Shown: positions 1 through 46,928 of the stretch, piece after piece
How the letters are laid out: every line of letters begins with the position of its first letter
How positions within the stretch are numbered: the first letter of the stretch is position 1
DNA from: a virus
IMG/VR virus record: IMGVR_UViG_3300046328_000321
Coordinates: 1 to 64,000 of that record
Direction: 5' to 3' (one strand)
Length of the DNA stretch: 64,000 bases
Position numbers and translations under genes: made by a program
Notes under the pieces: model-generated
Told to the model about the DNA's origin: nothing
Database searches by the model: none
The model's input: only the letters and a program-made list of their open reading frames with translations

Positions 1-1
1 A

Positions 2-181
2 GCCTGGTATCTGAATGGTCAATGTCATCGTGAAGATGGACCTGCTATCGAATATGCGAATGGTGATAAGCGTTGGTACGTTGAAGATAAGCTCCATCGT
101 ATCGATGGACCTGCTATCGAATATGCGAATGGTACTAAAGAATACTGGCTCCATGGTGTTGAACAGGATCCACCTGGTTAA
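2..181 (+). CDS. 3' end of HRxDGPAxE 22-aa repeat protein (partial, copy 1)
   Basis: Frame 2 reads AWYLNGQCHREDGPAIEYANGDKRWYVEDKLHRIDGPAIEYANGTKEYWLHGVEQDPPG*; same repeat and C-terminal cap as the other copies. Confidence 0.9.
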   Translation, partial: AWYLNGQCHREDGPAIEYANGDKRWYVEDKLHRIDGPAIEYANGTKEYWLHGVEQDPPG

Positions 182-190
182 CTGATATAA

Positions 191-230
191 ATATATACAC
201 AGCCTGATAAGCTGTGTATATTTTTTTTTT
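191..230 (+). terminator. Intrinsic terminator shared by repeat-protein cassettes
   Basis: tatacacagc-ctgataa-gctgtgtata followed by a T-run; near-identical at ~22570, ~32782, ~33348, ~46800. Confidence 0.85.
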
Positions 231-331
231 CCTGTTTGTAAACTATTTTAGTCACATATATTCTATTTGAGCTATCGCTGTAGTTTAATTCACATCTCTG
301 TGAAACTATCAGCCAAGGAGATAGACATGAC
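231..331 (+). promoter_or_regulatory. Repeated promoter + leader hairpin + RBS module (type B)
   Basis: tgtaaactat..gtcacatatattctatttgag...tatcagccaaggagatagacATGAC; second copy at 32819-32920. Confidence 0.7.
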
Positions 332-647
332 ACAAGCATACAAAGCTTTCTTTGGTGGTATCAACGCCACCTGTCAGTTTGGCAACGAGGGCGACATGGA
401 CTTCACCAAATCTGCTGAGGTGGTGATCATTGGAAACAAAGGTTCAGCATTTGCTGAGACTTATCTGGTCTTGGACAAGACCAATGGTAAGCTCGGTCGG
501 GCCACGAAGGCAGCAGATGATGAGATCACTGCAACATATTACTGCACCGACGCCCGTAAAATTGGACCCAACTGGTCCATTGACAAATGTCTGGTAAGTC
601 TCGGTTTTAGTGAAGTAATGTCTTCGGAAATTCAAACTCACATGTAA
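327..647 (+). CDS. Hypothetical early protein (106 aa)
   Basis: AAGGAG RBS before ATG at 327 (the TTG start at 267 lies in the regulatory module); followed by a terminator at 662-701. Confidence 0.7.
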   Translation: MTQAYKAFFGGINATCQFGNEGDMDFTKSAEVVIIGNKGSAFAETYLVLDKTNGKLGRATKAADDEITATYYCTDARKIGPNWSIDKCLVSLGFSEVMSSEIQTHM

Positions 648-705
648 AAACATGTGAGAAAATAACACCCTAGCCCAAAAGGCCGGGGGTGTTATTTTTT
701 TTTGT

Positions 706-2925: not shown

Positions 2926-2932
2926 CTGTGAT

Positions 2933-5900
2933 TTAAGTGGCTCTTCTTCTGAGATCTAAAGCTGGATTAGGTAAAATTTCTTTACCTGCATTAGGTATGC
3001 GACCAGTGGAAGGAGTTTCCTGTACGGGAGTACTCTTTTCTCCACTACCAGATCTGTTAGACATAAGTCCATGTATTTTACTAAGAACTTCCAACATTTG
3101 TTTTTGGACATTCAGAGAATCACCTAGATTACTATTCACAGTATTAAGATCCACACCAATATTTTTACTGGCGTCTGCGACAGGTTTTGAAGCTGTCTGT
3201 AGATCTGGAGCTTGCTGGAACGTAGTAAAAGATTTCTTTTGAGGGACATCTTGTTGATATGAGGTATTCTGAAAACCCGCAGAATTACTTATAGGACCAT
3301 AAGACTGTTCTATAGTTGTAGAACCAGAATCAGTTAAAACTTTAGCAACAGGAACATTTGCTTCTTGTTTAGGTTTTAACATACCTGCTACTTTACCACC
3401 TGCCTTAACCACTTTCTTTTTAAAGATCTCATAGATCTCTGCAAGTGTGCGTGGTCTGCGACCTTCAAAGAATATTTCTTTATTAGACGATGCAGCAGCT
3501 GGAAATAGTTGCGAGCCTGGTACATTAGGATGAGTCGACAAGAATCTACTTGCTCCATTCACACCTAAAAAATGTGCTAGATAAAGATCTAAGTCGTCAG
3601 GATTTTCTTTGACTTTTTTCAATATCTCTATATTACTCTTTATATACTCGGCAGCCAATAAACTACTGGCTCTAGGGTCTGTGGGAGAAACATCACCTAA
3701 ACTATATTTTTTACCGTGTTTTCTAAGCTGCTCTCTCCAAGTGTCTCTGGTAAATTGAAATAAACCTGTAGCAGAAGACCTTGGATTCTTTGCGTCTGGA
3801 TTCATATTCGATTCAATTGTGGCAAATGTTTTTAATGTCTTTGCATCCACACCTGTTTGAGAAGCAGCTTTTTCAATAATACTACCAATGTCGGTGGATC
3901 CACTATCTTCAGAATTAGTTAATTTACCATCTTCTGAATATTTCAATATTGTAGAAGTAGCATCTTTTGCTACTTTAATAGAAGATTCACCATACATGCC
4001 TGTAAAATTACCCATGGCATCATGTATGCCAATATCACCAATAGAAACATTTTCTTTAATTGGTGTTTTAGTTTCCTTAGTGGTTGTAGTTTTATCATCA
4101 GTCTTAGATGTATTCATGGTCTTATTGACCAAACTAATTTCATTTTCAGTTAACTGATTGTTAATTGTACCTGTGGTAGTAGCTTCTAATAAAGCTCTTG
4201 CCATGTCATAATTTCTACCTTTGAGACCACCTTGCATGATGGTACCATAACCACCACCGCCTCTACCGACACCATATTGAATTAAATTGGTAGCTGTGTC
4301 TGGATCTTTTATAGATCCCGTTAGAGATAACTGAATACCAGCTGGTTCTACGTGCCAAGGTTCAGAACCCACAGGACGAGTAAATCCGTACTTCTTGGTC
4401 AGTCCCATTTTTTCTAATTCAGCCATGATACCTCTGTCGATATCCATAGCCAAACCAAATTCATGTAAAGATTTTCCAGGAGGTGCTGACGTGCCAGGAT
4501 TTCTTCTATATATCTCAGCTTGTTTAGCATAAGAACGATATGCATCATTGATAGTGATCTTCTTACCAGTGATCTCCCCATATTCTTGAGCCATAGCCAG
4601 AAGATTTTTATACATCTCTGGATTCATATTCTCTATATTAACACCAGTCTTCAAACTGATATATTGCATACCTGTGCTACCATCTCTCATCGCACCATTG
4701 GCCAAAGGAGGAGTCTTCACACCACCTACAGCACCGGTTTGATTACTTACAGCACCTGCTTTGTCATTTACCTTACCATCTTCAGAACCCAAAATGTTAG
4801 GATCTACTGAGATAGGTTTTTTTGGTTTAATAATATTTTTTTCTTCTGGTGTGGGCAGCATCGGAGTATGTTTCTTAGAAACTTTCTCGTCAGTATGACC
4901 GGTATTATTACCCATAGCGTCTGTTTCAGACATTGGCATTTTTATTTCATCAGAGACTTTAGCAATCAAAGTTTTGATGACAGATCTTACCAACTCTCTG
5001 TTGTCAGATAACGTGGGTATTTCATTTATAGGGCTAACGTTAGCATCGTGAGGACCATCGTCAAAAGCCGTTAGTTCCAGATACTTTTTACGCTCTTCTG
5101 GTTTTAACTTTTCAATTTTATTTAAGGGACTACCTTTTCTAATACTGTTTAAAACTCTTAAGTGGTTAATGAAGAAGAATTTAAAACGATCTTTAAACCA
5201 TGTTTGTAGTTTTTGAGTTTGTTCTTTATTTTCTTCACTGACTCCAAATATAGAAGCCACGTCTTTCCATTCCAAAGAAGTGTTAATTTTAACATCATTG
5301 CCTGAAACAACAACGTGTTTATCTAACAACATATTTTCAAGCTCTATCATTTTGTAATGATTCTGAGCATGTTTGGGTTCATTGTTTAAACCGTATTGAT
5401 GCACACGGTAGAGCTCATACTTAGACAGATTGTTTCTGGTCAGGTATTCATAACCTTTATAAGTACCATAAGCGGTAGCGCCTATAACCATAGCCGCAAG
5501 TACTGGAGGAGATAGCAATAAAGTCATAGCAGTTCCACCCACAGCAGCAATAGCGCCAAAGGTGCTACCCATGGTACCAGCAGCCAACACGCCTGTGATA
5601 GCTGGCAGAGCCTTGGCTATAGTAGGCAGGTTAGTAACAGCAGCGGTACCTAAAGTAAATATACCTTTATCTAGAAATTTACTTATAAAACCAACATCTT
5701 TTACTAAAGACCAGACACCACCAACAAGCGATCCTGCACCAGAAATAAGTATGCCAAGTTTATCTATGATCCCTTTAAGCATACTACCTTCTTTATACTT
5801 TACGGTCATATCTGGTTCAGCAGCATCTTTACTTTTTTTAGATTGAGTAACTTTACCATTACCAGCCTCAACACCGTTTCGCATTTTGGTCAGTCTGTCC

Positions 5901-8900
5901 AACCAAGATCCATCTCTGTTACCGCCTCCATCTTTGTCGTTCAATTTCTCTTTGGCTTTCTGACCGCGTTTAGCAGCGATACGAGCCATACGCTCTAACC
6001 TACTACCCTTGTCAGCTTTACCAGGTATAGCTATCTTCTCAGATGCTTTTTCATCGAGTTGATCCTTAATAGCTCCTACACGCTCTTTACCTTCTATGAT
6101 TTTGTCTTTGACAGACTTACTCATAGATCCTAAGAATCCCAAAGCTTTGCCAGTAAGAGACTTCTTATCAGGCATAGGTCCTATGAAAGATTCTTTATGG
6201 GCTTGGTAAGCTTGTAGTTTTTCTTGTACATGTTTCTCAGCACTTTCTGCTTTTGATCTCAAGTATTGTCTGATAGATCCAGGTTTGTTCTCAGTTTCTT
6301 TTTTATCTTCGGTCTTATCCTTAGACTTAAAGTACTTGTCTTTGAACTCTGAATATTTCTTACTGAAAGAGAATTTCTCTTCACCAGGCTGAGGACCGAC
6401 AAACTCTTCTTGAAACTTGGCTTGTTCCTTAATAGTCTTGCGTTCTTCTTTTCGTTTGGCTATATTAGCCAAACGTTCTTCTCTGGTGTCTTTTTCTTTT
6501 TTGACAGGTTTCTTATCTTGTTCAGTGGTTGTTTTTTGATCGCCTATACCAAAGTAACCACCTACTTTACTCAACAGACCTTTGGCTTGTTTACCTTGAT
6601 CTGTATCGTCGAACAATTTTCTTAAAGCTGAGAAAGACTTTTCAGTACCGCCTGTATTGGTGCCTTCTTTTACAACTTGTTCAGTTGTTTCAGAATCTTT
6701 TTCACCTTTACGTTTTTTCTTTTTACCCCAGTTCTTGAGTATGTCTTTAATCTCATTCAGGGTATCCAATATTTTCTTGTTACCGAATCCGATACCTAAG
6801 TTGCTTGTATCAAAACTTTTAAAGGCTTTATTGGCTAATTGCCAAGCACCAGAAGCCACAGCTCCTAACACCTTAGCACCGAACTTAACGATGGTTTTAC
6901 CACCTGTATAAAGGTTTCTTAAAGAAGATTTGATGGATCTTCCTTTGATATCCACAAGACCTCTAATGATATCAGCGTTAGAGAGTATGATGTTACCGGC
7001 TTTGTCTACGACTTCACCTTTGATATCAGAATACTTTTTTATCACGGTACCAGAAGCTTTGTCGTAATATTCACCAGATTCAGCCAAGATCTTTTTTATC
7101 TTGGGCATGGCTTCGCCCTTGACATAGATATCAGCATCAATAAAGACATCTCTCACTATACCAAGAACAGCACCTGCACCTTTGAAGACACTACTGGTTA
7201 TTCGTTCAAGACCTTTATAACCCATCTCACCGACGTTCATGATAAGGTCTTTACCGAGATTACCTACAGTTCTTACTGTCTTATCTATTTTATCTCTGGA
7301 TTCATAGATCTTGTTAACACCGGTACCTATGGTACTTAGAGTACCTTTAGTGACTTTACCAGCTAAAGATAAACCAAATCTACCTGTACCCAACACAGCA
7401 TCTTTGACAAGTCTGCCTGCTGTCACGGCTGAATCACCAAAAGAACCAAAGAAGTTTTTATCTATCGTTAGACCTGGTATGGACAATATAGTCAATTTAC
7501 CTAAAGCATCTAGCTTGTCTAACGATGTTTTTGTATGTTCTGAAATAAGTCTTAGGTATTCAGTCTGAGTACCAGCCATCTCCTTTAACCCATCCATATC
7601 CCCAGATTTAAGTTTAGATAGATCATCAACTTTTTGATTGACTTCTTGTATAGCCGCCATGTTCATACCGTTCATGGTAACCAGATCTATCTTTCTACCA
7701 TCTGGAGCGGCCTCTTCACCCAAGTTACGTTTAACGTCTTGAGCCATGGGTCCTATTTTAGGACTATTGGAATCTTCACCTAAACCTTGTTTATAATTCC
7801 AATTAAAAATTGGAACATTTTTCATAGATGATAAAATGGATCTTCCATTAAAACCAGGTATAACTCTACCATCGTACTTACTAATATTAGTTTTAGTATT
7901 TACGTCAGATGTTGCTATGCGTTGAGCAGCAGTTGTGTCTTTAATAAATTTTAAATATTTGTCCATAACGACGGTATATTTACCATCGCTATTCATTTTG
8001 ATAATACCTGCATTAATCAGTGCTTTATCTTGACCTGCTTCAAGATACTTACTAATGACATCCTGAACGTCAGGAGTAGCCCCTCTAATACTATCTATTT
8101 CGTTTGTAAAGGCAGTACTTGCTTTAAATCTATCTCGATTACCCTCAGCTTCCATCTTTCTAAAAATAGATTCAGCAACTTTTGCTCTGGTGCTGGAAGA
8201 CATCTTTTTGAAATCATCGTCTTCAATTATACTGTCTAAAGATGTATTATTATTTTTACCTGTAGCAAAATCAGCTAAGAATTGTTTAAACTCTTCACGC
8301 TCTGCTTCATCAGCATCTTCACCAAGTATTTTATCAGTTATATCGGCAATAGTCCTATTGAAACCATAAGAACGATTTTCAACAGCTTCTTTAATACTAT
8401 TTTGTATTTCAGCATCTAAGTCAGATTGAGTTTTAAATTCACCCTTGACCTGATCATAAACCAGAAGAGAACTGTTTCTTCCTTGAGTCCTTGTCATTCT
8501 CAATTCTTGATGAATTCTAGATAAATAACCAGGAATGATTTCAGTCACACTAAGTAACATACTACTATCTGACTGTGCCTTAGCACCAGGTACATCAGAA
8601 GCAAATAATTTCTTAGCATTTAGTCTATCCTCAGGACCTGTTTTATTCCCCATGTCTAATATCTCATCGAAGGTCTCGAATAGAAATCTCTTAAAGAAAT
8701 TGTTACTCTGTAAACCATTCTTCATATCCTGACTTTTCTTGAGCTTATCTATATACTTGTAAGGATTGGCAATCATACTCTGCCATTTCTCACCAGTCAT
8801 TTTAAGATCAGGGAATTCTTTTTCTAGTTGTTTTCTGAGTTCTGGAGTCAATAAGTTTCTGAGACTATTTATACCCATGGCACCCAATTGCTCACCAAAG

Positions 8901-9943
8901 AACTGAGCATTACTACCACCCATCTGACTGTTCATGTCCATACCCATCTCAACCATCTCTATACCAGAGACACCTTGTTGGATACCTTCAGATATTTCAG
9001 AAACTTTTTGACCAATATAAGGTGTCAATCTGTTGAAGAAGTTATCAACAAAGTTATTTTTACCAAATAACTTATCAGCTATTTTACCTGTAGTACGTTT
9101 AGCAAGTTCTTCTCTAAACAACTCATTCTTATGTATCTTTAAGAATTCAGGTAAAGCTGTATTCTTAGCAATTATATCGAACTGTTTGGTTGTAACTTCT
9201 TGATACTTACGACTATAGTCAACCAATTCTTTCTGAACAAAGAATGAGCGCATTTGTAACTCTAAACTTTTCTTTTGAAAAGCCTGAGTGATATTATCAT
9301 TGTAACTGGTTAGTCTGGCAATGTTATCATGGATACCACCTAACACACCAATCTCAGAATCAAAACGTTTCTTTTCAACACCTTCTCTGATGTTGTTTTG
9401 AGCGTTTTGCCTAGCTGTTATTTGACCCTGTACCTCCTGATTGGCCGCAAAGACTCCAGCGATAGTGCTTTGGATACTTTGCTCAAGTTGGTTATCACCG
9501 GATCCATTACTTATCTGATCTTTACCACCCGTGGCCTCAAGAAACTTATCGGTCATTCTTCGAAAGAAACCGTCTTCTTGAGGTACAAGCTTATCTATCT
9601 TTTTACCTAAGCTATTCAGCTGAGGTTTTAATTCCCGGATAGTTTCATCATATAGCCTGGTAGACCTACTGATAACTTTATCCGCTGTGGTAAAACTAGC
9701 ACCGTAAGACTCTGGCAGTACCTTTTCAAGTGTATCTGTCAGAAATTGAGGACTAGATAATTCACTGGCTGCTCCAGAGATAGTACCTTTGAATACCTCA
9801 GTAACAGGATTTCTGTTTTTAGGTTGTTGAGATTCAGGTGATAATTCACCTGAAAGATCATCCATACCAAAGTCATCTAAATCGAGATCGTCATCTAAAT
9901 CAAATTCATCTCGTTTTAGTTTTTTCTTAACGTCTTTAGCCAT
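2933..9943 (-). CDS. Tape-measure/tail-associated lysin (phiKZ gp181-like) with internal S74-like, M15 peptidase and lytic transglycosylase domains
   Basis: 2336 aa; SLT motif IESNMNPDAKNPRSSATGLFQF; M15 motifs SLHEFGLAMD and EPWH; divergent from the RNAP beta' gene as in phiKZ. Confidence 0.85.
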   Translation of the reverse strand: MAKDVKKKLKRDEFDLDDDLDLDDFGMDDLSGELSPESQQPKNRNPVTEVFKGTISGAASELSSPQFLTDTLEKVLPESYGASFTTADKVISRSTRLYDETIRELKPQLNSLGKKIDKLVPQEDGFFRRMTDKFLEATGGKDQISNGSGDNQLEQSIQSTIAGVFAANQEVQGQITARQNAQNNIREGVEKKRFDSEIGVLGGIHDNIARLTSYNDNITQAFQKKSLELQMRSFFVQKELVDYSRKYQEVTTKQFDIIAKNTALPEFLKIHKNELFREELAKRTTGKIADKLFGKNNFVDNFFNRLTPYIGQKVSEISEGIQQGVSGIEMVEMGMDMNSQMGGSNAQFFGEQLGAMGINSLRNLLTPELRKQLEKEFPDLKMTGEKWQSMIANPYKYIDKLKKSQDMKNGLQSNNFFKRFLFETFDEILDMGNKTGPEDRLNAKKLFASDVPGAKAQSDSSMLLSVTEIIPGYLSRIHQELRMTRTQGRNSSLLVYDQVKGEFKTQSDLDAEIQNSIKEAVENRSYGFNRTIADITDKILGEDADEAEREEFKQFLADFATGKNNNTSLDSIIEDDDFKKMSSSTRAKVAESIFRKMEAEGNRDRFKASTAFTNEIDSIRGATPDVQDVISKYLEAGQDKALINAGIIKMNSDGKYTVVMDKYLKFIKDTTAAQRIATSDVNTKTNISKYDGRVIPGFNGRSILSSMKNVPIFNWNYKQGLGEDSNSPKIGPMAQDVKRNLGEEAAPDGRKIDLVTMNGMNMAAIQEVNQKVDDLSKLKSGDMDGLKEMAGTQTEYLRLISEHTKTSLDKLDALGKLTILSIPGLTIDKNFFGSFGDSAVTAGRLVKDAVLGTGRFGLSLAGKVTKGTLSTIGTGVNKIYESRDKIDKTVRTVGNLGKDLIMNVGEMGYKGLERITSSVFKGAGAVLGIVRDVFIDADIYVKGEAMPKIKKILAESGEYYDKASGTVIKKYSDIKGEVVDKAGNIILSNADIIRGLVDIKGRSIKSSLRNLYTGGKTIVKFGAKVLGAVASGAWQLANKAFKSFDTSNLGIGFGNKKILDTLNEIKDILKNWGKKKKRKGEKDSETTEQVVKEGTNTGGTEKSFSALRKLFDDTDQGKQAKGLLSKVGGYFGIGDQKTTTEQDKKPVKKEKDTREERLANIAKRKEERKTIKEQAKFQEEFVGPQPGEEKFSFSKKYSEFKDKYFKSKDKTEDKKETENKPGSIRQYLRSKAESAEKHVQEKLQAYQAHKESFIGPMPDKKSLTGKALGFLGSMSKSVKDKIIEGKERVGAIKDQLDEKASEKIAIPGKADKGSRLERMARIAAKRGQKAKEKLNDKDGGGNRDGSWLDRLTKMRNGVEAGNGKVTQSKKSKDAAEPDMTVKYKEGSMLKGIIDKLGILISGAGSLVGGVWSLVKDVGFISKFLDKGIFTLGTAAVTNLPTIAKALPAITGVLAAGTMGSTFGAIAAVGGTAMTLLLSPPVLAAMVIGATAYGTYKGYEYLTRNNLSKYELYRVHQYGLNNEPKHAQNHYKMIELENMLLDKHVVVSGNDVKINTSLEWKDVASIFGVSEENKEQTQKLQTWFKDRFKFFFINHLRVLNSIRKGSPLNKIEKLKPEERKKYLELTAFDDGPHDANVSPINEIPTLSDNRELVRSVIKTLIAKVSDEIKMPMSETDAMGNNTGHTDEKVSKKHTPMLPTPEEKNIIKPKKPISVDPNILGSEDGKVNDKAGAVSNQTGAVGGVKTPPLANGAMRDGSTGMQYISLKTGVNIENMNPEMYKNLLAMAQEYGEITGKKITINDAYRSYAKQAEIYRRNPGTSAPPGKSLHEFGLAMDIDRGIMAELEKMGLTKKYGFTRPVGSEPWHVEPAGIQLSLTGSIKDPDTATNLIQYGVGRGGGGYGTIMQGGLKGRNYDMARALLEATTTGTINNQLTENEISLVNKTMNTSKTDDKTTTTKETKTPIKENVSIGDIGIHDAMGNFTGMYGESSIKVAKDATSTILKYSEDGKLTNSEDSGSTDIGSIIEKAASQTGVDAKTLKTFATIESNMNPDAKNPRSSATGLFQFTRDTWREQLRKHGKKYSLGDVSPTDPRASSLLAAEYIKSNIEILKKVKENPDDLDLYLAHFLGVNGASRFLSTHPNVPGSQLFPAAASSNKEIFFEGRRPRTLAEIYEIFKKKVVKAGGKVAGMLKPKQEANVPVAKVLTDSGSTTIEQSYGPISNSAGFQNTSYQQDVPQKKSFTTFQQAPDLQTASKPVADASKNIGVDLNTVNSNLGDSLNVQKQMLEVLSKIHGLMSNRSGSGEKSTPVQETPSTGRIPNAGKEILPNPALDLRRRAT

Positions 9944-9985
9944 TTTTTGGTAATCCTTATTAGGCTGATTAATTTCATAGGATCA

Positions 9986-12492
9986 ATGATGCCATCTTCT
10001 TCTCTACCCTTTAATTTAGATCTGCTAAACCTCACAGATATAGATATCAGAAGTCTACGACCTGTAAAAGTATTGGATATCACTGATGGTCTTAGTAAAA
10101 ACTTTCACCCTGATGGATTGTTCAGCACAGAAACATTTGGGATGATTGGTGAAGAGAAAAGAAATCGGATGTTCTCTTTTATAGAATTACATATACAAAT
10201 TCTTCACCCTATTGTTTTTAAAGCTGTGTATGATCTAAAAAGTCTATATGGTGACATCATGTCATCCAAAGGGTATGCTATTTTCGATCCTCAACTTAAG
10301 GACTTTGTTAAATCAGATCCTGTTGAAGGTAAAACAGGTTTTGATTTCTTTATTAAACATTTCAAAGAAATCAAATTTGAAGAAAGACCTTCTCCCAGAC
10401 GAGAGTTTAACATCAAGTTGGTGAATAAATATAGAGAAAAGGCACTGATCGATAAATTTGTAGTTATGCCTGCTGGGTTAAGAGACTACACTTTAGATGA
10501 GAATAACCAACCCAGCGAAGATGAAATCAATACTTTATATAGGAAGGTATTATCTTTAGCCGGTGTGATCGGTACAGTGGACTCTAAACTAAATGCTGAA
10601 TATTTTAACAATATGAGGTTTCAGTTACAGATTGCTTGTAACGAGATTTTTGAATATATTAAGAACTTGCTTGAAGGTAAAAGTAAACTTGTTCTAGGTA
10701 AATGGGCTGGAAGAAAAACTTTTCACTCTACTAGAAATGTGATTACTTCTTACGTAAGTAAAAACAAGAAACTATTTGGTCCTAATCATGTCTCTACCAA
10801 CCAGACTGTAGTTGGTCTTTATCAGTTTCTTAGAGCCACGTTACCTCTGTCTATTAAGAATGTCAGAGATGGTTACATGACTAAAGTATTTTCAGGTCCC
10901 AATACACCTATGATGTTAACGGATAAAAAAACACTAAAGAAAGTCATAGTACCCATTGATGGTAAGGAATACGATAAGTGGATGACCAATGAAGGTTTAG
11001 AGAAAGTGTTTGCTACTTACGGTCAAGAAAACTTAAGACACGATCATGTTGAAATAGCTGGTCATTATGCAGGACTTATTTTTAAAGGTAAGGATAATAC
11101 ATATCGTTTTCTACAAGACATAGATGAGTTACCTGAAAGATACAATAAAGAAGATGTATCGCCCATCACAGTGACAGAACTCATTATGTTAAGTGTTTAT
11201 GAAGGTTCCAGTGAAATACCTTGTTTTGTTACTCGTTATCCTGTCACAGGTTACGGCAGTATCTATCCAAGTTATGTTTATTTGAAATCTACGGTAGAGA
11301 ATGAAATTAGAATTTTGTTAGATGATAATTGGGAACCAACAGAACAAACATGTGCAGAATTTCCTACACCAGGTAGTGGTTTTTTTAATTCTTTCTCTGT
11401 GAGTAGTTCTCATTTAGGAAGATTGGGAGCTGATAAGAAGCAGTTTTTGGATATTTAAATTTGCTCTTTTACCTATAATGCGGTTTAATTAACGTTATGG
11501 TGAAAAGCATGTTTAAAAGATTTTTCCACACAGTTTTTTTGATTTACAACATTAACTGATGTGGAAAAAGCTTGAGATTGGTAATCTCATAAACAAAATT
11601 TGTTATGTCCTCTTAGGTAGTAATATCTAAAGAGTTTTTTCTTGAATTGCTAGAAAGCCTTTAGAGCTTTGTTAACCACTGCGAGACGAAAGTCAAAGCC
11701 AAGGTTTGAAAATAACAGAGATTAGGTAATCAGCAGCTAAGACGCTAAAGTCAGTTGTGAAATTGATCATGCGTAAAGTTCAACGACTAACCCTTAAGCA
11801 AGGTGTAGGAGATAGTATCTCCGAAGTGGGAAACACCCTACTGTTCTACAGAGGGTGAAGATATAGTCTGCTCCTTTGGGAAAGCCAAAGGCGGGTGTCA
11901 AAGCACACCGGGTTACTTTATGATAGGCTTGATGCCGAACGACTGTAACTGGACAATAGGTTCGATAAACGTGAATACTGATTCACAACTGTCGCCTGTG
12001 GAGGAAATACCACAGTGATAACTTCTTGAATTGCTGGGAACTCTTGTTAGACTGTTGAACTAAAGCGGAGTGTGAAAACACATACGTCTATGTTTGAAAA
12101 TCAGCAGGTAGAGACAATCAGCAGCTAAGCTCCTTTAAACTGGAGAAAGTTCAACGACCATCTCAGAAATGAGAGTAGGATCTAGTAGGTCCGAAGTGGG
12201 AAGCATCTAAACAGGTAAAGCTGAAGATGGTGATATGGTCTGTTCCTGTATGAGAATACAGGCGGGTGTCGAAGCATACCGGGTGTAAAGGGTAGGCTAT
12301 TATAGCTGAGCGGTTACATCGGACAACAAGGGTGACACGATGTCTTTGGTCTGTGTGATGAGTGAAGAATCCAAAGCAGAGATCAAAGACAAATTAAATT
12401 CTAGAAATTATTATATCGGAGTTAACAACAAGATGAATTTCAGTGGTAATGACGACATTTTGGATTTGACCTTGGCCAACATGACGAGTTAA
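9986..12492 (+). CDS. Virion RNA polymerase beta'-like catalytic subunit (phiKZ gp180-like); spliced exons 9986-11434, 11961-11966, 12331-12492 (~538 aa)
   Basis: DGLFSTETFG, TRYP motifs; joining the three exons restores LGAD-FD-GDTMSL, the DxDGD Mg-binding motif. Confidence 0.92.
11435..11960 (+). mobile_element. Group I intron 1 (no intact homing endonuclease)
   Basis: Upstream exon ends in T, intron ends in G; core motifs P gaattgctagaaa, Q aatcagcagc, R gttcaacgacta, S aagatatagtct; P7.1/P7.2 hairpins (IA-like). Confidence 0.9.
11961..11966 (+). other. 6-nt micro-exon TTCGAT (Phe-Asp of DFDGD)
   Basis: Lies exactly between the terminal G of intron 1 (ggacaatagG) and the start of intron 2; supplies the missing FD in frame. 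Confidence 0.88.
11967..12330 (+). mobile_element. Group I intron 2 (ORF-less)
   Basis: P gaattgctgggaa, Q aatcagcagc, R gttcaacgacca, S gatatggtct (P7 GACCA/TGGTC covaries with GACTA/TAGTC of the other introns); IGS GTCG pairs exon CGAT with a U.G wobble; ends ggacaacaaG before GGT GAC. Confidence 0.92.
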
Positions 12493-20670: not shown

Positions 20671-20852
20671 ACCATATACGACTTCCTTCAGTGGAAGTCG
20701 TATATGGTGTGTATTTTTTACAATAGATGTAATTTATTATGGCTGAATATACACCAGCCTTTGTAAAAGCGTATAATCACTCATACTTTATCTGACTAAA
20801 TATAGTCAACTTTTGCAAAAGTCGTCTTTCAATTTAAACTTAAGGAACCATA

Positions 20853-21411: not shown

Positions 21412-22557
21412 ATGCCAACACACGGTAGAACATTTAATAGTCGGTTATTTGTTAACCAACAAAAAGATCAAAAAGTTGTTACCGACAAACAAAAAGCTTA
21501 TAAGTCAGAATATTGTTTACAAGAAATGTCAAAAGAACAGTTAATTACATTGATTAATATGCAAAAACAAGAACCCATTTCTGTAAAAATGTTACATAAT
21601 AATAGCTGTTTAAATGGATTTGATAACCTCAATAAAGTAGGATCTTTTATCAATATCCTAGGAATGGGATATTACCAAGGTTCTAAATCTAAACCTAATG
21701 TGTCTGTTATTTACCCGTATGTAAATGTAACTTCTGATTATTCTGTAAAGGAGAGTTTTTTCCCCAAGATATCTTTTTCAGATTCATTTGAACAACAATC
21801 TAATAAAATTGAATTTTCGTTACTTCAAGCTGAACGCAAAATTAACGAATTGCAACTTCTAATAGATGTGATGATCAATGAATTTAAACAGTATAAAACA
21901 ATAAATAACAAAAATTCCCATCTTGAAAATGTCCCTATTGTAAAATATGCAAGTGGTAATAAGCGTTGGTATCTGAACGGTAAGCTTCATCGTGAAGATG
22001 GACCTGCCATCGAAGATGCAGATGGTTATAAAGGCTGGTACCTAAACGACCAGCTTCATCGTACAGACGGACCTGCTGTTGAGCATATAAATGGTGATAA
22101 AGTCTGGTATGTCGATGATAAACTTCATCGCACAGATGGACCTGCTATCGAACGTGCAGATGGTACTAAAGAATGGTGGGTCAACGGCAAACGACACCGG
22201 ATCGATGGTCCTGCTGTCGAAGATGTGCATGGTTATAAAGCATGGTATCTGAACGGTAAGTATCACCGTGAAGATGGACCTGCTATAGAATGGGTAGATG
22301 GTAGTAAAGCCTGGTGGGTTGATGGTAAGCTCCATCGTACAGATGGACCTGCTATCGAATATGCACATGGTTATAAAGCCTGGTATCTGGATGGTCGATA
22401 CCATCGCACAGATGGACCTGCTGTGGAAGATGTGAACGGTTATAAAGCCTGGTATCTGGATGGTCAGCTCCATCATACTGATGGTCCCGCTATTGAACGT
22501 GCGAATGGTGGTAAAGAATACTGGCTCCATGGTGTTGAACAGGATCCACCTGGTTAA
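21412..22557 (+). CDS. Fusion of an unrelated N-terminal domain with ~9 HRxDGPAxE repeats (copy 2)
   Basis: Repeats from ~21940 ending EQDPPG*; shared terminator follows. Confidence 0.85.
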   Translation: MPTHGRTFNSRLFVNQQKDQKVVTDKQKAYKSEYCLQEMSKEQLITLINMQKQEPISVKMLHNNSCLNGFDNLNKVGSFINILGMGYYQGSKSKPNVSVIYPYVNVTSDYSVKESFFPKISFSDSFEQQSNKIEFSLLQAERKINELQLLIDVMINEFKQYKTINNKNSHLENVPIVKYASGNKRWYLNGKLHREDGPAIEDADGYKGWYLNDQLHRTDGPAVEHINGDKVWYVDDKLHRTDGPAIERADGTKEWWVNGKRHRIDGPAVEDVHGYKAWYLNGKYHREDGPAIEWVDGSKAWWVDGKLHRTDGPAIEYAHGYKAWYLDGRYHRTDGPAVEDVNGYKAWYLDGQLHHTDGPAIERANGGKEYWLHGVEQDPPG

Positions 22558-22671
22558 CTGATATAAATATATACACAGCCTGATAAGCTGTGTATATATT
22601 TTTTTTTTCTATTGTAATTCACTCTCCTCTAGACCTTTGGGTCTAGAGGAGAGTGGTCCTAACTGAATGTG

Positions 22672-32100: not shown

Positions 32101-32229
32101 ACATAAACATTCCCTTTATAACATATTTCAGCTATACATACTTTAACTGAGCTATTACAGTTTAAACTGATGTATCTGTCAGTACTGTTAATTAAAGGAG
32201 ATAAAGATGACTATCGTTACTAATGAAAA
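32094..32229 (+). repeat. Repeated promoter + leader hairpin + RBS + start module (type A)
   Basis: tatatgaacataaacattcc...ttacagtttaaactgatgtatctgtcagtactgttaattaaaggagataaagATGACTATCGTTACTAATGAA; copies at ~33383-33500 and ~46052-46185. Confidence 0.85.
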
Positions 32230-32770
32230 CGGTATCTTTTACTATAATGAAAAGGGTGAATATCACCGTGAGGATGGACCTGCTGTTGAATATCGAAATG
32301 GTGATAAAGAATGGTATCTGAATGATAAGCTTCACCGGATCGATGGTCCTGCTGTTGAATATGCGAATGGTGATAAAGTATGGTTCGTTAACGGTAAACG
32401 GCACCGGACCAATGGTCCTGCTGTGGAATATAGCAATGGTGATAAAATATGGTATGTCGATGGTCAGCGCCATCGTGTGGATGGTCCTGCTTTTGAAACA
32501 TTAGGTGGTTATAAAGCCTGGTATCTGAATGATAAGGTCCATCGTCTCGACGGTCCTGCTGTCGAAGATGTGAACGGTTATAAAGCCTGGTATGTCAATG
32601 ATCAATACCATCGCACAGATGGACCTGCTGTGGAAGATGTGAACGGTTACGGTTATAAAGCCTGGTATCTGCATGGTCAACGCCATCGTGTGGATGGTCC
32701 CGCTATTGAGCGGGCGGATGGTACTAAAGAATACTGGGTTAACGATATTCAACAGGATCCACCTGTTTAA
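32207..32770 (+). CDS. HRxDGPAxE repeat protein (copy 3)
   Basis: Tandem 22-aa repeats, QDPPV cap, AAGGAG RBS. Confidence 0.9.
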   Translation: MTIVTNENGIFYYNEKGEYHREDGPAVEYRNGDKEWYLNDKLHRIDGPAVEYANGDKVWFVNGKRHRTNGPAVEYSNGDKIWYVDGQRHRVDGPAFETLGGYKAWYLNDKVHRLDGPAVEDVNGYKAWYVNDQYHRTDGPAVEDVNGYGYKAWYLHGQRHRVDGPAIERADGTKEYWVNDIQQDPPV

Positions 32771-32915
32771 CTGATATAAATATACACACAGCTTATTAGA
32801 CTGTGTGTATTTTTTTGTTCCTGTTTGTAAACTATCTCAATCACTTATACTTTATTTGAACTATCGCTGTAGTTTAATCCATACATCTTTGGAACTATCA
32901 GCCAAGGAGATAGAC

Positions 32916-33335
32916 ATGACTGTGATTAAAAACCAGTATGGTACTTTTTATAGGAATGACGCAGATCAACTCCATCGTACCGATGGACCTGCTATCGAAT
33001 ACGCGAATGGTGATAAGCGTTGGCATCTGCACGGTCAGCTTCATCGTGAAGATGGACCTGCTGTGGAATATGTAGATGGTAGTAAATCATGGTTCGTTAA
33101 CGGTAAACGGCACCGGACCAATGGTCCTGCTGTGGAATCTGCAGATGGTTATAAAGCCTGGTTCGTCAATGGTCGACGACATCGTACTGACGGTCCTGCT
33201 GTGGAATGGGGAGATGGTAGTAAGTCATGGTGGGTCGACGATAAGCTCCATCGTGAAGATGGTCCTGCTGTGGAATATCCAGATGGTACTAAAGAATACT
33301 GGGTTAACGGTGTTAAACAAGATCCACCTGTTTAA
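32916..33335 (+). CDS. HRxDGPAxE repeat protein (copy 4)
   Basis: ATG at 32916 after AAGGAG in the type B module; repeats; QDPPV cap. Confidence 0.9.
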   Translation: MTVIKNQYGTFYRNDADQLHRTDGPAIEYANGDKRWHLHGQLHREDGPAVEYVDGSKSWFVNGKRHRTNGPAVESADGYKAWFVNGRRHRTDGPAVEWGDGSKSWWVDDKLHREDGPAVEYPDGTKEYWVNGVKQDPPV

Positions 33336-33477
33336 CTGATATAGATATATACACAGCCTGATAAGCTGTGTATATTTTTTTACCTTTTATAACATATTTC
33401 AGCTATACATACTTTAACTGGGTTATTACAGTTTAAACTGATGTATCTGTCAGTACTGTTAATTAAAGGAGATAAAG

Positions 33478-33984
33478 ATGACTATCGTTACTAATGAAAA
33501 GGGTGAACTTCATCGTGAAGATGGTCCTGCTGTAGAATATGCACATGGTTATAAAGTCTGGTATCTAAATGGTAAGTTCCATCGTGAAGATGGTCCCGCC
33601 ATCGAATATGCGAATGGTGATAAGCGTTGGTACATTGAAGATAAGCTCCATCGTGAAGATGGTCCTGCTGTAGAAGGTGCAGATGGTTATAAAGCATGGT
33701 GGGTCAATGGTCAACGACACAGGATGGACGGACCCGCTATCGAATATCCAGATGGTAGTAAAACTTGGTATCTGAACGATAAGGTCCATCGTACAGATGG
33801 TCCTGCTGTAGAAGGTGTAGATGGTACTAAAGAATGGTGGATCGATGATCAACTCCATCGTGAAGATGGTCCCGCCATCGAATATCCAGATGGTACTAAA
33901 GAATACTGGCTCCATGGTTATAAAGCCTGGTTTCTGAAAATATTAAACAAAATATTAACCAGGTATTCTTGTTTTAAATTTTAA
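33478..33984 (+). CDS. HRxDGPAxE repeat protein (copy 5, aberrant C-terminus)
   Basis: Repeats; lacks the QDPP cap and the shared terminator. Confidence 0.85.
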   Translation: MTIVTNEKGELHREDGPAVEYAHGYKVWYLNGKFHREDGPAIEYANGDKRWYIEDKLHREDGPAVEGADGYKAWWVNGQRHRMDGPAIEYPDGSKTWYLNDKVHRTDGPAVEGVDGTKEWWIDDQLHREDGPAIEYPDGTKEYWLHGYKAWFLKILNKILTRYSCFKF

Positions 33985-34046: not shown

Positions 34047-34952
34047 ATGAATATAAATGAAATTAATCCAAAACCTCTTATTCTTTTGACAAATGTTCAA
34101 GAGACAACCGTCAATACCGCTGTTAATAATGAGAAGAAATATGTCGCTAAATCGATTATTAACATGTTGGATAAACCAACATGTTGTATTGTATATAATC
34201 ATTTCAGTTTAGATGCCATGATGGCTGCTGCTGTTTATAAGACACAAACACCAGGTTCGGTTGTCTACAGTAGTATTAAACAAATACCCTCAGATATTGA
34301 TTTTTATATTGTTATTGGGATGCGTAAAGTTCAAAGTTTTTACAATCCCCTCAAACGTATTTTTAATTTTAATAATGCTAAATTAGACTACTCAGAAAAC
34401 ATAAAATGTTATTGGGTTGAAACAAAAGGACATGACTATATGTCAACACCTTCTTTATTTCATAAGGTCTGCGAAGAATTTGGTGTAGTTTCTGAAGTTA
34501 TTGATCAAATTAGTTATGCTGTTGGTCGGATTTATGAGAAGGATTTGACTTTGAGTCAATTAGTTCTGGTTTATGTGAATATGATGTTAGCACAAGCTGC
34601 TATCGTCGACACACGGCGTAACTATAAACCTCGCGATATTCTCAATGACGATAATACAATTCGAGGAACTGATATAGAAAACTTTCGTGCTTATGTGAAA
34701 GCAATTCAACACAAAGTCAACGGAAGCATCAACCTGAAATATTTTACAATCGGTAATAAAACGTATAAAACCATATTGACAAACATTACAGATGATTACT
34801 TTTGGTCCATGCGTTTGATTCGTATTGCTCACGAATATGTTGTGAATCTTGCAATAACACCTCGGGGTTATTTAATTGATAGTAACATTTCAGATGAAGA
34901 TTGTAAAAGCATTGAAGTTCAAATTGATTTTATAAAAGCTGAAACATTTTAA
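34047..34952 (+). CDS. Hypothetical protein, possible degenerate DHH-fold
   Basis: IVYNHFSLDAMMAAAV resembles DHH motif I; no DHH or GGGH motif. Confidence 0.5.
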   Translation: MNINEINPKPLILLTNVQETTVNTAVNNEKKYVAKSIINMLDKPTCCIVYNHFSLDAMMAAAVYKTQTPGSVVYSSIKQIPSDIDFYIVIGMRKVQSFYNPLKRIFNFNNAKLDYSENIKCYWVETKGHDYMSTPSLFHKVCEEFGVVSEVIDQISYAVGRIYEKDLTLSQLVLVYVNMMLAQAAIVDTRRNYKPRDILNDDNTIRGTDIENFRAYVKAIQHKVNGSINLKYFTIGNKTYKTILTNITDDYFWSMRLIRIAHEYVVNLAITPRGYLIDSNISDEDCKSIEVQIDFIKAETF

Positions 34953-37133: not shown

Positions 37134-37238
37134 GTTAAATTACCTCAAAACATAGTATGTAAAATCTGGGTAAAAAGACATCTACCAGCCCTTGTGAGGC
37201 TGGTAGATGTACTATAAATAAAGACCTTTTACATATCT

Positions 37239-41427: not shown

Positions 41428-41559
41428 TTAAAAATACACTCTGGCCTGTAATAGCCAGAGTGTATTTTTTTTTTAGTTACATTAAGGCCTTTAAAAAGTA
41501 CTGTGATAATACATACTTTGATTGATAATACCTGATTCATCAATCCAAAGGAAAGTAAC

Positions 41560-41931: not shown

Positions 41932-41934
41932 TCC

Positions 41935-42639: not shown

Positions 42640-42640
42640 T

Positions 42641-43822: not shown

Positions 43823-43832
43823 AAGCAACAAA

Positions 43833-44231: not shown

Positions 44232-44267
44232 TAGTAATATCATTTATTTAAACATATTGAAATTATA

Positions 44268-44669: not shown

Positions 44670-44670
44670 T

Positions 44671-45030
44671 ATGAAGCACATAGACAACTGGTTAGACTCA
44701 CCACCTTTTCAACAATCAGAAAATATAATCTATGCAAAATGGGTTATTAACTATTTTAGATTACCAGCTGGTTTAAAAATACAGTTTAATAAGTTCATGA
44801 TTGGATTTCATCTTTTTGCAGAATGGAAAGGAAACGTTTATCGAGTCACAGGTGCTTCTCGTATGGGTGATGTTTGGTTATCTGAGGACTTTAATCGTGA
44901 AAACGGTTACGATCTTCGTGTGGAAGTAAGTGAGCTAACCAACTGGTCTAATAAACCAGATGGTTCTTACGATCCGAATCTTTTTCCTACAAAGCCGTCT
45001 TATGATACGAGTCAGATGGTCACGGCATGA
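44671..45030 (+). CDS. Phage hypothetical protein
   Basis: Likely start MKHIDNWLD; YRVTGASRMGDVWL segment. Confidence 0.6.
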   Translation: MKHIDNWLDSPPFQQSENIIYAKWVINYFRLPAGLKIQFNKFMIGFHLFAEWKGNVYRVTGASRMGDVWLSEDFNRENGYDLRVEVSELTNWSNKPDGSYDPNLFPTKPSYDTSQMVTA

Positions 45031-45385
45031 AGGTTATGAGGTAAGTTCTAAAGGTGATAAAAGATTCTCTGCTTTAAACGCCATCTTACCAGAAGGTAGA
45101 AGTATAGAGCAGATTTATCAGCTTGACTGTAAAGGCTTTGACCCCGGTGGTACAAATTGGAGACTGGGAAAAGGAAAATCTCCTCTTAATCCTGATATCG
45201 ATTTGTACAGAGCTTACCTAGATCTTTGGAAGTGTTGGACGCTTCACAACTTCGATCTTATCTGTGAGTTGAACAGACTTGCTTATGAGAATAACAATTG
45301 CTTGAGAGACAGATTCGCTTCCACGGATATTAATCAGGCAAGAGCTTTAGCAGAAATACCGACCATACTGAGAAACAGGTCTTAA
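45002..45385 (+). CDS. Hypothetical protein, possibly NADAR-like
   Basis: YEVSSKGDKRFSAL...SIEQIYQLDCKG; likely start MIRVRW. Confidence 0.5.
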   Translation: MIRVRWSRHEGYEVSSKGDKRFSALNAILPEGRSIEQIYQLDCKGFDPGGTNWRLGKGKSPLNPDIDLYRAYLDLWKCWTLHNFDLICELNRLAYENNNCLRDRFASTDINQARALAEIPTILRNRS

Positions 45386-45401
45386 CTCAAGGAATAGTAA
45401 A

Positions 45402-46058
45402 ATGATTAAATCAGACAAATGGATTCGTGAAGAATCTCTTCTTCGTGATATGATTGTTCCATTCTACATGGAAAGTATCAACAAAATCACAGTACATGGT
45501 GAAGAAAAGAAAATACCCAGCTATGGACTATCCTCTTATGGATACGATGTAAGATTGGGTGGTAATTTCACATTCTTCCGTGGTCCGCGTGAGCAGATTG
45601 TTCGTAATAGTTCTTACGACGGTGACGGACTTCCTGTTAACACAGTGGTTCCAGCAGGTACCCATGATGGTTTTATCGATATTGCTGATTTCACAAACAC
45701 CTGTGAAATCACAATGATTGAAAACGTTGCTTGGATCGAATTACCTCCCAAGAGTTTTTGTTTAGGACACACTCTTGAGCGTATAAGAATGTTACGCAAC
45801 GTAACGGCAATTTGTATGGGTAAATCTACAATAGCTCGTGCCGGCATCATCGTAACTGTAACACCTATTGAATCTGAATGGTCTGGATTTATAACATTGG
45901 AGATAGCTAATACCACAGATATCCCAGTACGTATTTATACCGGTATGGGTATTACTCAACTTCAATTTTTCCAATCGGACGAAGATTGTCTGGTGAGTTA
46001 CGCTGATCGTAATGGTAAATATCAGAATCAATTAGCTGTTCCTGTAACAGCTATATGA
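45402..46058 (+). CDS. dcd: dCTP deaminase
   Basis: MIKSDKWI, SYGLSSYGYDVR, GKSTIARAG, WSGFITLEI, YADRNGKYQ motifs. Confidence 0.93.
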   Translation: MIKSDKWIREESLLRDMIVPFYMESINKITVHGEEKKIPSYGLSSYGYDVRLGGNFTFFRGPREQIVRNSSYDGDGLPVNTVVPAGTHDGFIDIADFTNTCEITMIENVAWIELPPKSFCLGHTLERIRMLRNVTAICMGKSTIARAGIIVTVTPIESEWSGFITLEIANTTDIPVRIYTGMGITQLQFFQSDEDCLVSYADRNGKYQNQLAVPVTAI

Positions 46059-46163
46059 ACATAAACATTCCTTTTATAACATATTTCAACCACTTATACT
46101 TTATTTGGGTTATTACAGTTTAAACTGATGTATCTGTCAGTACTGTTAATTAAGGAGATGAAG

Positions 46164-46790
46164 ATGACTATCGTTACTAATGAAGAATGTACCTTTCATT
46201 ATAATGAAAAGAATGAGCTCCATCGTGAAGATGGACCTGCCATCGAAGATACAGATGGTTATAAAGCATGGTGGGTTAACGGTAAACGACACCGGACCAA
46301 TGGACCTGCTATCGAAGGTGCGGATGGTAGTAAGTCATGGTGGGTTAATGATCAACGCCATCGTACAGATGGACCTGCTGTGGAATATGTAAATGGTGAT
46401 AAACTATGGTTTGTTAATGATCAGCGCCATCGTGTGGATGGTCCCGCTGTCGAATATAACAATGGTTATAAAGCCTGGTATGTCGATGGTCAGCGTCATC
46501 GTGTGGATGGTCCCGCTGTCGAAGAAGCAGATGGTGGTAAAGTATGGTATCTGTATGGTCAACGACATCGTGAAGATGAACCTGCTGCAGAAGGTGCCAA
46601 TGGTAGTAAGTCATGGTGGGTTAACGGTCAACGACACCGGATCGACGGTCCTGCTGTAGAGCGAATAGACGGCCATAAAGAATGGTTCGTTAACGGTGAA
46701 CCCCATCGTGTAGATGGTCCCGCCATCGAATACCCAGATGGTACTAAAGAATACTGGCTCCATGGTGTTAAACAGGATCCACCTGTTTAA
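46164..46790 (+). CDS. HRxDGPAxE repeat protein (copy 6)
   Basis: Type A module, repeats, QDPPV cap, shared terminator. Confidence 0.9.
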   Translation: MTIVTNEECTFHYNEKNELHREDGPAIEDTDGYKAWWVNGKRHRTNGPAIEGADGSKSWWVNDQRHRTDGPAVEYVNGDKLWFVNDQRHRVDGPAVEYNNGYKAWYVDGQRHRVDGPAVEEADGGKVWYLYGQRHREDEPAAEGANGSKSWWVNGQRHRIDGPAVERIDGHKEWFVNGEPHRVDGPAIEYPDGTKEYWLHGVKQDPPV

Positions 46791-46928
46791 CTGATAGATA
46801 TATACACAGCCTGATAAGCTGTGTATATATTTTTTTTACCTTTTGTAAACTATTTCAGTCACATATATTCTATTTGAGCTGTGGTTTAACTTAACATTTA
46901 GTTGAGACTATTAGTTCAAGGAGTTATC

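Follow-up and report, generated by a model that had tools for sequence, protein, structure and literature searches.

Small MORN-like repeat genes of a phiKZ-like giant phage form a mosaic and accessory family

We found that a phiKZ-like giant phage carries a dispersed family of small genes built from a MORN-like repeat, at least 12 genes with 57 repeat units in all across a contig of 113,368 bp, every one of them on the plus strand. On balance we think it somewhat probable that the genes make up a mosaic, accessory and early-expressed multigene family whose products, small soluble MORN-like proteins, would act as adaptors most plausibly against host proteins. The window analysed is a stretch of 64,000 nt beginning at the contig start, and its features up to position 46,928 are collected in Table 1. 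The contig is a metagenome assembly corresponding to about 43% of a genome, and both of its ends break inside repeat genes. The first-pass annotation had described six loci (G1–G6) as a dispersed family encoding the scaffold HRxDGPAxExxxGxKxW with variable positions, and all six do encode the repeat in the frames assigned to them; the repeat length of 22 aa was in error, however, because the spacing and the table of 57 units give a period of 69 nt, or 23 aa. Most free-standing copies hold 1–8 units between an N-cap and a C-cap. The units are mostly unique (mean pairwise identity 0.68, maximum 0.96), and throughout the repeat genes of the contig the caps stay position-specific, unlike the internal units, which have been exchanged. 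For the N-terminal domain of G2, no homologue was found anywhere searched.

Most free-standing copies have the same arrangement, in which a conserved promoter-like motif is followed by a leader with the strong ribosome site AAGGAGAT and then by the N-cap, the units and the C-cap; every copy has its own ribosome site. Among the six window copies, to which the terminator analysis was applied, five are closed by hairpin terminators (z -4.8 to -7), the exception being G5, which is probably co-transcribed with the downstream ORF301. The contig scan assigned the promoter-like motif, an AT-rich element of 39 nt, to 25 sites, all on the plus strand. Seven of these precede the start of a repeat gene by about 53–55 nt, and one more, at 20760, heads the unit containing G2, a gene located among virion genes and without a strong motif of its own; for G9 and G11 the motif was not detected. 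The motif found on most repeat copies is also common to many small accessory genes. The phage encodes an RNA polymerase, represented by the beta-like genes phrog_2986 and phrog_3148, and a multisubunit polymerase together with an AT-rich motif before many small genes of the same strand is the combination that characterizes early units of RNAP-encoding jumbo phages, in which conserved upstream motifs proved to be early promoters (PMC7598289). The earlier proposal of early expression therefore survives as a prediction that draws on the strand-specific 39-nt motif, the presence of the polymerase genes and a generalization from those phages; the cassettes would be transcribed early by the virion RNA polymerase.

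Table 1. Repeat genes and associated signals in positions 1 to 46,928 of the window
Feature	Position	Strand	Remarks
G1, 3' part of a repeat gene truncated by the contig start	2..181	+	2 units and C-cap
Terminator hairpin and U-run after G1	189..232	+	-14.5 kcal/mol, z -5.3; family D5
39-nt promoter-like motif for the next transcription unit	235..273	+	family D4
Weaker promoter-like motif	20760..20798	+	score 32.6; upstream of ORF 20853-21323 and G2; heads the ORF156-G2 unit
G2	21412..22557	+	unique 188-aa N-terminal domain, then 8 units and C-cap
Terminator after G2	22565..22608	+	-18.1 kcal/mol, z -6.2
G3 promoter-like motif	32115..32153	+	
G3	32207..32770	+	7 units; GY insertion in unit 6, common to G11
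Terminator after G3	32778..32821	+	z -5.3
G4 promoter-like motif	32824..32862	+	
G4	32916..33335	+	5 units
Terminator after G4	33343..33386	+	z -4.8
G5 promoter-like motif	33386..33424	+	family D6; G5 leader 97% identical to G3 leader
G5	33478..33984	+	6 units, aberrant C-terminus, without terminator (z -0.7)
ORF301	34047..34952	+	conserved gene; weak DHH-fold lead
G6 promoter-like motif	46073..46111	+	
G6	46164..46790	+	8 units; protein used for the structure model
Terminator after G6	46796..46841	+	z -7.0
Promoter-like motif of the unit after G6	46842..46880	+	

Two relatives with 76% identity in a core protein, G001 and G002, have no cassette at any of the three loci checked, while the flanking gene order of G2, the G3–G5 cluster and G6 matches on both sides. 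In both relatives nothing occupies the G2 slot, the G3–G4 cassettes are absent, and the G6 slot in G002 is occupied by an unrelated 83-aa ORF; this has shown that the cassettes are accessory, their slots being empty or filled with other small genes. Repeat copies number 0 in G001 and 1 in G002 (lower bounds, the relatives being 44–60% complete), and thus far more copies are present here than in the two sampled relatives. The sole copy in one relative is fused to the orthologue of ORF301, the gene beside G5, and orthologues of ORF301 in relatives, which adjoin the terminase gene, either stand alone or begin with 3, 4 or 5 repeat units. The expectation that the family varies among relatives was borne out in both these respects, the presence or absence of cassettes and the unit number of the fused orthologue. 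Since close relatives have the core genes without the cassettes, and a conserved gene anchors one copy, the family seems to consist of accessory, probably early, binding proteins that were gained and reshuffled recently.

The same locus is the starting point for an intraviral role, in which the repeat proteins would act on the phage's own proteins, such as the DHH-like product of ORF301 or virion components, tethering or titrating them as adaptors or regulators, or would self-assemble into scaffolds in the manner of MORN1. In relatives the conserved ORF301 orthologue has repeats at its N-terminus, no terminator separates G5 from ORF301, G2 is flanked by virion genes, one family member is fused to a tail-collar domain, and MORN1 proteins dimerise and oligomerise (PMC7725318). 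On the other hand, 10 of the 12 copies stand without a fused domain and are not adjacent to ORF301, the motif of most copies is one common to many small accessory genes, and absence from close relatives having the same core genes is unusual for conserved parts of a machine. We thus regard a purely intraviral role as possible, with the chances clearly against it. The model of the ORF301 product was poor (pLDDT 62), and gave only weak matches to the DHH fold (E 0.008–0.06).

How the copies of this family became different from each other can be examined at the nucleotide level. The three exact blocks pointed out in the first-pass annotation were reproduced base for base, namely 22398-22442 = 32605-32649 (45 nt), 32380-32429 = 33089-33138 (50 nt) and 136-221 = 22512-22597 (86 nt), and only about half of the last is coding, as it takes in 43 nt at the end of the coding sequence together with the stop codon and terminator hairpin. 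Between loci, exact matches of at least 24 nt number 123, and none is longer than 86 nt. Tested against a null weighted by position, exact runs were in excess on 52 of the 395 in-register diagonals at p<=0.01 (4 expected), and on 19 at the stricter p<=0.002 (0.8 expected). A two-codon GY insertion is common to the sixth unit of G3 and the second unit of G11 and lies inside a 66-nt identical block, and therefore represents real exchange rather than convergence. None of the 45 adjacent unit pairs is collinear with another copy, and unit identity within genes (0.680) equals that between genes (0.685); these two results rule out whole-gene duplication, as well as tandem duplication with concerted evolution, and sustain the original view of mosaics made by recombination or gene conversion. 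It is thus shown that dispersed copies have exchanged internal units, in short pieces some 25–86 nt long, probably through ectopic homologous recombination or gene conversion that keeps the 69-nt register.

A short-read assembler switching paths at k-mers common to paralogues could produce some or all of such a pattern, since both contig ends lie inside repeat genes and the exact blocks, at 86 nt or less, are within the k-mer range of assemblers; the unit order within the tandem G3–G5 cluster was read from the metagenome assembly alone. A mis-join would, however, shift the unique flanks too, and the flanks of G2, G3–G5 and G6 match those of the relatives; moreover, the units are mostly unique, and whole-unit differences in copy number occur in natural proteins from other samples. 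We therefore consider an artefact very unlikely. Near-identical assemblies in which unit order might vary were not found by exact-pattern scans of viral and metagenome contigs, and profile scans brought up nothing beyond G002, already known as a relative, and a 1.3-kb fragment. At the amino acid level, units of the window match other internal units at best at 18.7 of 23 positions and external units at 18.0 of 23.

The MORN-like fold proposed earlier, with similar models in large viruses, is matched by the predicted structures. The AlphaFold2 model of the G6 protein has a pLDDT of 97.8, and all of the top 20 PDB matches found by Foldseek are MORN proteins (probability 1.00), the best being TbMORN1 (6t68, E 1e-7), with TgMORN1, junctophilins, radial-spoke MORN proteins and MORN4 also present. 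TM-scores against these solved proteins are only 0.43–0.45, because the curvature of long solenoids differs. The MORN repeat is a 23-residue beta-hairpin with a role in protein-protein interaction (PMC7725318), and here too the period is 23 residues and each unit is modelled as a beta-hairpin in an elongated sheet. The strand alternation in the DSSP assignment of the model implies that the variable positions 14 and 16 would point away from the invariant K15 and W17. Membership of the Pfam families MORN, MORN_2 or YwqK was rejected, as neither PF02493 nor PF07661 matched any of the six proteins at E<=0.01, and PF07661 is present in a few distant homologues. At the same threshold NCBIfam gave no YwqK or MORN model, the MiiA-motif match being sub-threshold and confined to G5; a sequence search of the PDB gave nothing, and PHROGs gave only fragmentary matches to families of unknown function.

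The classical idea for MORN repeats is that they bind membranes, and such modules might direct the phage proteins to the membrane or cell wall of the host, in keeping with the resemblance to junctophilin MORN domains and with very weak fold matches to glucan- or cell-wall-binding hairpin repeats (E 0.06–0.14). Those cell-wall matches are not significant, however, lipid binding by MORN repeats was not supported when re-examined (PMC7725318), and the proteins are mildly acidic (pI 5.4–6.5) with no signal peptide or hydrophobic segment, which makes membrane or envelope binding quite improbable. A DNA mimic was also considered and rejected, since this pI is not strongly acidic.

Selection on the unit was estimated codon by codon. 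Scaffold codons have dN/dS of 0–0.07 at pS of 0.2–0.4, which shows strong purifying selection on the H, R, D, G, P, A, K and W positions that keeps the fold, and the six variable positions, 3, 10, 11, 14, 16 and 23, have dN/dS of 0.58–1.49 depending on the divergence bin and drift about neutrally. Non-synonymous change, whose enrichment had been anticipated, thus does not rise above neutrality at these six positions, and no clear positive selection was found. Their variability may be a simple lack of constraint, because the same non-scaffold positions vary across the consensus of the whole family. A dedicated diversification machine in place of ordinary recombination, such as a diversity-generating retroelement, would also leave variable codons within a fixed scaffold, and is extremely improbable, given that no reverse transcriptase (PF00078) was found in the 113-kb contig (about 43% of the genome) while positive controls worked, that the variation spans more than one base type, and that the exchanged tracts match other paralogues exactly, which is what homologous exchange leaves behind.

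Comparison with known systems places this family more precisely. The best structural matches (TbMORN1/TgMORN1, 6t68, 6t69 and 6t4r; junctophilins, 7rxe and 7rw4; MORN4-Myo3a, 6jle; radial-spoke proteins) share its 23-residue period, one beta-hairpin per unit, elongated sheet and aromatic-x-x-G-K-x-H core, and the solved members are modules of protein-protein interaction or oligomerisation (PMC7725318), a role extended here by analogy; the phage copies differ in having HRxDGPAxE in place of the GxG and YEGEW motifs and in being tiny and stand-alone with dedicated N- and C-caps. Giant eukaryotic viruses (Pandoravirus, Marseillevirus, Mimivirus R871, megaviruses) also have a MORN paralogue family in a large genome, with predicted structures matching the phage model at TM 0.7–0.8, whereas here the host is bacterial, a phiKZ-like phage carries the genes as promoter-terminator cassettes, and mosaic exchange and absence from close relatives are shown directly. 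DUF6745 (PF20530) is the only Pfam model scoring on the repeat proteins, and does so on many homologues, but of its 206 profile positions only those from about 47 to 88 are aligned, through summed weak matches (whole-protein scores 18.6–47.2 bits against a cut-off of 27, no single stretch passing), and the rest of the domain is absent. As an analogy of mechanism only, bacterial surface-antigen families likewise swap short in-register tracts between dispersed paralogues on a fixed scaffold; the phage family, in contrast, has no expression site with silent donors, its copies mostly having their own motif, and neither programmed or high-frequency switching nor a signal of selection is in evidence.

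The repeat class has 26,030 cluster representatives at E<=1e-3, its atlas neighbours being mostly tailed-phage proteins, and a single-protein scan of genome contigs hit just three loci, in bacterial MAGs. The domains fused to family members are of many kinds, as would be the case for a generic interaction module. No paper dealing with DUF6745 or with jumbo-phage MORN repeats was found, nor any study of this repeat class, which is among the larger unstudied phage protein modules.

In the explanation we prefer, that of accessory early binders, most free-standing copies would be autonomous cassettes, running from a phage promoter-like motif to an intrinsic terminator, and in-register exchange between copies would generate genes differing in unit number and order, one copy being linked to a conserved gene with which it is fused in relatives. 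Transcribed early, presumably by the virion RNA polymerase, the products may serve as protein-binding or oligomerising adaptors like the solved MORN proteins, and their most plausible targets would be host proteins, for takeover or counter-defence. Searches with padloc gave chance-level matches only, with no known defence or anti-defence model matched, and no literature on such a role of the repeat was found. A bolder proposal, which we put forward as doubtful, is that HRxDGPA cassettes are a general phage device, a recombination-fed repertoire of early MORN-like binders; it is similarly speculative that by reshuffling its units this repertoire acquires new specificities, directed at host defence or housekeeping proteins. 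If true, viruses would have their own equivalent of cassette-based binder libraries, which would account for the tens of thousands of metagenomic protein clusters with this module. Because relatives keep the core genes without the cassettes, the contig is a clean natural experiment, and the questions can be tested with cultured carriers, namely Celeribacter phage P12053L, whose homologue is among small genes upstream of replication genes, and Agrobacterium phage Atu_ph07. If the targets were identified, a new class of host-takeover or counter-defence factors might emerge, or a new adaptor system acting within jumbo-phage infection.

The first-pass annotation had described six loci of one repeat family, and translation of each of them indeed gives a tandem array of units built on the scaffold H-R-x-D-G-P-A-x-E-x-x-x-G-x-K-x-W. 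The three exact nucleotide blocks that it quoted as recurring between loci are identical base for base; the repeat length of 22 aa, on the other hand, had to be corrected to 23 aa (a period of 69 nt). The whole contig contains 57 units in twelve genes (G1-G12), all on the + strand, and these genes are its sole expanded family according to BLAST clustering. The other BLAST clusters were rejected as further families, because they were shadow frames of the repeat genes themselves; such long shadow ORFs show up as spurious "families" in an all-against-all comparison and do not merit annotation as genes. Beyond the repeat genes, the contig has just two paralogue pairs: 57334-57729 with 58157-58528, and 50427-50993 with 101061-101918 (-).

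Coordinates of the repeat genes and other features (window positions unless the contig is named)
Feature	Position	Strand	Remarks
Repeat gene G1	2-181	+	
Repeat gene G2	21412-22557	+	
Repeat gene G3	32207-32770	+	
Repeat gene G4	32916-33335	+	
Repeat gene G5	33478-33984	+	
Repeat gene G6	46164-46790	+	
Repeat genes G7-G12	contig 68.4, 73.2, 96.8, 97.2, 97.6, 113.1 kb	+	
Shadow ORFs	22042-22530, 32192-32473, 33565-33915	-	antisense to repeat genes
Shadow ORFs	33076-33339, 46180-46659	+	out of frame with repeat genes
Motif sites	235, 20760, 32115, 32824, 33386, 39871, 46073, 46842, 48860, 49282, 51000, 56663, 58061, 62919	+	39-nt promoter-like motif
ORF301	34047-34952	+	conserved in this phage group
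Group I introns	11590-11890, 11967-12262, 15897-16186		Rfam RF00028, 64-86 bits
RNA polymerase beta-like ORFs	9947-11458, 12497-15679, 16242-17369		split by the three introns
2,336-aa ORF	2933-9943	-	SLT transglycosylase, VanY peptidase and Peptidase_S74 (intramolecular chaperone) domains

The proposed MORN-like beta-hairpin fold is supported by the AlphaFold2 model of G6 (69 aligned sequences; pLDDT 97.8, pTM 0.86), in which short strands recur strictly every 23 residues. All 20 PDB structures matching it at E<=0.001 are MORN proteins, with TbMORN1 and TgMORN1 at the top (E ~1e-7), followed by junctophilins, radial-spoke and axonemal MORN proteins, and MORN4. The viral models most similar to that of G6 come from uncultured tailed phages (55% identity, TM 0.80) and from giant viruses, namely Marseillevirus, megaviruses, Mimivirus (R871) and Orpheovirus. 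MORN is defined as a 23-residue hairpin unit with a role in protein-protein interaction and oligomerisation, lipid binding being unsupported (PMC7725318). At the sequence level, however, the contig repeats have only an aromatic-x-x-G-K-x-H core in common with MORN proteins; the Pfam models MORN and MORN_2 do not match the repeat proteins, and DUF6745 scores on them only as a fragment.

Mean pairwise identity of the units is 0.684, and recent tandem duplication or concerted evolution can be dismissed because identity is equal within genes (0.680) and between genes (0.685). The last units cluster together (identity 0.78), indicating that the caps hold their position. The exchange of units by recombination, as the first-pass annotation had supposed, is borne out by several observations: the nearest neighbours of adjacent units are adjacent in another gene in 0 of 45 pairs, exact tracts of 26-86 nt tie each repeat gene to many others, and, in a runs test that weights mismatches by position, 52 of 395 diagonals reach p<=0.01 where 4 are expected. 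The nearest matches of the five G10 units, for example, lie in G6, G5, G1, G3 and G4, and G11 resembles G6 and G2 at its 5' end and G3 in units 2-3, having a two-codon insertion in common with G3. Such a mosaic might also result from mis-assembly between dispersed loci, but this is unlikely because the gene order flanking G2, G3-G5 and G6 agrees with that of relatives on both sides, an argument that covers the dispersed loci, the order inside the tandem G3-G5 cluster being as assembled.

Synonymous sites of the scaffold codons have diverged substantially (pS 0.2-0.4), yet dN/dS there is 0-0.07, so that the fold is kept by selection and the repeat genes are functional. At the six most variable positions of the unit (3, 10, 11, 14, 16 and 23), dN/dS rose with the divergence of the pairs compared, from 0.58 through 0.90 and 1.11 to 1.49, the last value being inflated by saturation and binning, and recombination among units bars a proper site test of selection. 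These positions thus appear to evolve near neutrality, and the non-synonymous enrichment anticipated there was not found.

The source contig (IMG/VR; linear, 113,368 bp; CheckV completeness estimate 43%), whose initial 64 kb make up the window, belongs to a phiKZ-like jumbo phage, and carries genes for a phiKZ gp29-type protein, DUF7193, tail tube protein, virion proteins and large terminase, as well as beta-like genes of a multisubunit RNA polymerase, into which group I introns are inserted. Direct repeats of 66-100 nt (D7-D9) are common to the three introns of the polymerase genes. A fourth group I intron lies at 63576-63824 (62 bits); ARAGORN found no tRNA in the window, and any tRNA gene hosting this intron would therefore be intron-split. 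The product of the 2,336-aa ORF is probably a virion-associated cell-wall-degrading protein. Both contig ends fall within repeat genes (window 1-181 and contig 113104-113368) with no terminal overlap, and further copies therefore probably exist beyond them.

The nearest phage-collection records have only ~37% DUF7193 identity, and two IMG/VR contigs, G001 (164 kb) and G002 (120 kb), have 76%. G001 has no repeat copy and G002 has one; in neither is there a gene in the slot that G2 fills between a 156-aa ORF and the tail tube gene, and in G002 the slot of G6, with its flanking genes unchanged, is taken by an unrelated 83-aa ORF. The G002 counterpart of G3-G4-G5 plus ORF301, a conserved gene adjoining the terminase gene, is a single 413-aa gene, in which four scaffold-matching units and a degenerate N-terminal one are fused to a domain with 63% identity to ORF301. 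Across metagenomes, ORF301 orthologues stand alone at 284-306 aa or have three, four or five units at 367, 390-391 and 413 aa, differing from one another by whole units. These fused orthologues and empty slots show that both unit number and cassette presence vary in nature, as had been expected. The AF2 model of ORF301 is poor (pLDDT 62), and its best fold matches (family II pyrophosphatase, DhhP, RecJ/Cdc45 and NrnA; E 0.008-0.06) are all DHH-family phosphoesterases, a weak but consistent lead toward a DHH fold. Separately, a 218-aa ORF (45402-46058) has as its G002 orthologue a 552-aa open frame (L027, G002:109807-112974), with an insertion of ~315 aa between the conserved halves that the window's copy does not have and that looks like an intein with endonuclease.

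Most free-standing copies have a shared build: the 39-nt promoter-like motif, whose AT-rich core contains ..CATATACTTTAYTTGA.., a conserved leader with a AAGGAGAT ribosome site, an N-cap (MT[IV]VTN..G.FHYNEKGE), 1-8 units and a C-cap (KEYW..GVKQDPP[VG]). The motif has 25 sites in the contig, every one on the + strand; seven are ~53-55 nt 5' of repeat-gene starts (the genes listed are G3-G8, G10 and G12), a weaker one heads the unit of the 156-aa ORF and G2, and the remaining ones head other small transcription units. No motif was found upstream of G9 and G11. Among the window copies G1-G6, to which the terminator test was applied, a hairpin and U-run terminator follows G1, G2, G3, G4 and G6 (z -4.8 to -7). 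Two copies are exceptional. In G2 the units are preceded by a unique N-terminal domain of 188 aa, and the weaker motif is one that this gene shares with its upstream ORF. In G5 the C-terminus is aberrant and the terminator is lacking (z -0.7), ORF301 beginning 62 nt downstream.

The wider family is large: the number of cluster representatives in a full HMMER pass was 26,030 at E<=1e-3 and still 13,142 at E<=1e-10, and proteins of this repeat class reach ~1,900 aa. Fusion partners are varied and each rare (tail collar, LRV/HEAT, EF-hand, RING and primase C-terminal domain), and atlas neighbours are for the most part Uroviricota. The cultured Celeribacter phage P12053L has a homologue among small hypothetical genes upstream of its replication genes. 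Our literature search turned up no publication that deals with DUF6745 or with jumbo-phage MORN repeats.

In all RNAP-encoding jumbo phages profiled to date, motifs of this sort that had been found by bioinformatics turned out to be early promoters (PMC7598289), and the motif upstream of the repeat genes would, on this generalisation, point to their early expression. The fold is consistent with a binding or adaptor role of the products. A host-directed role is suggested by the accessory status of the genes, their cassette architecture and their genomic setting; none of the defence-related models match the repeat proteins, and we regard host defence or takeover factors as targets with low confidence, as a rather doubtful possibility. 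The structural and evolutionary parts of our reading are held with high confidence, and we moderately favour it as a whole: ectopic recombination would diversify the repeat genes of this phage, and their products would be early-expressed, MORN-like binding adaptors.
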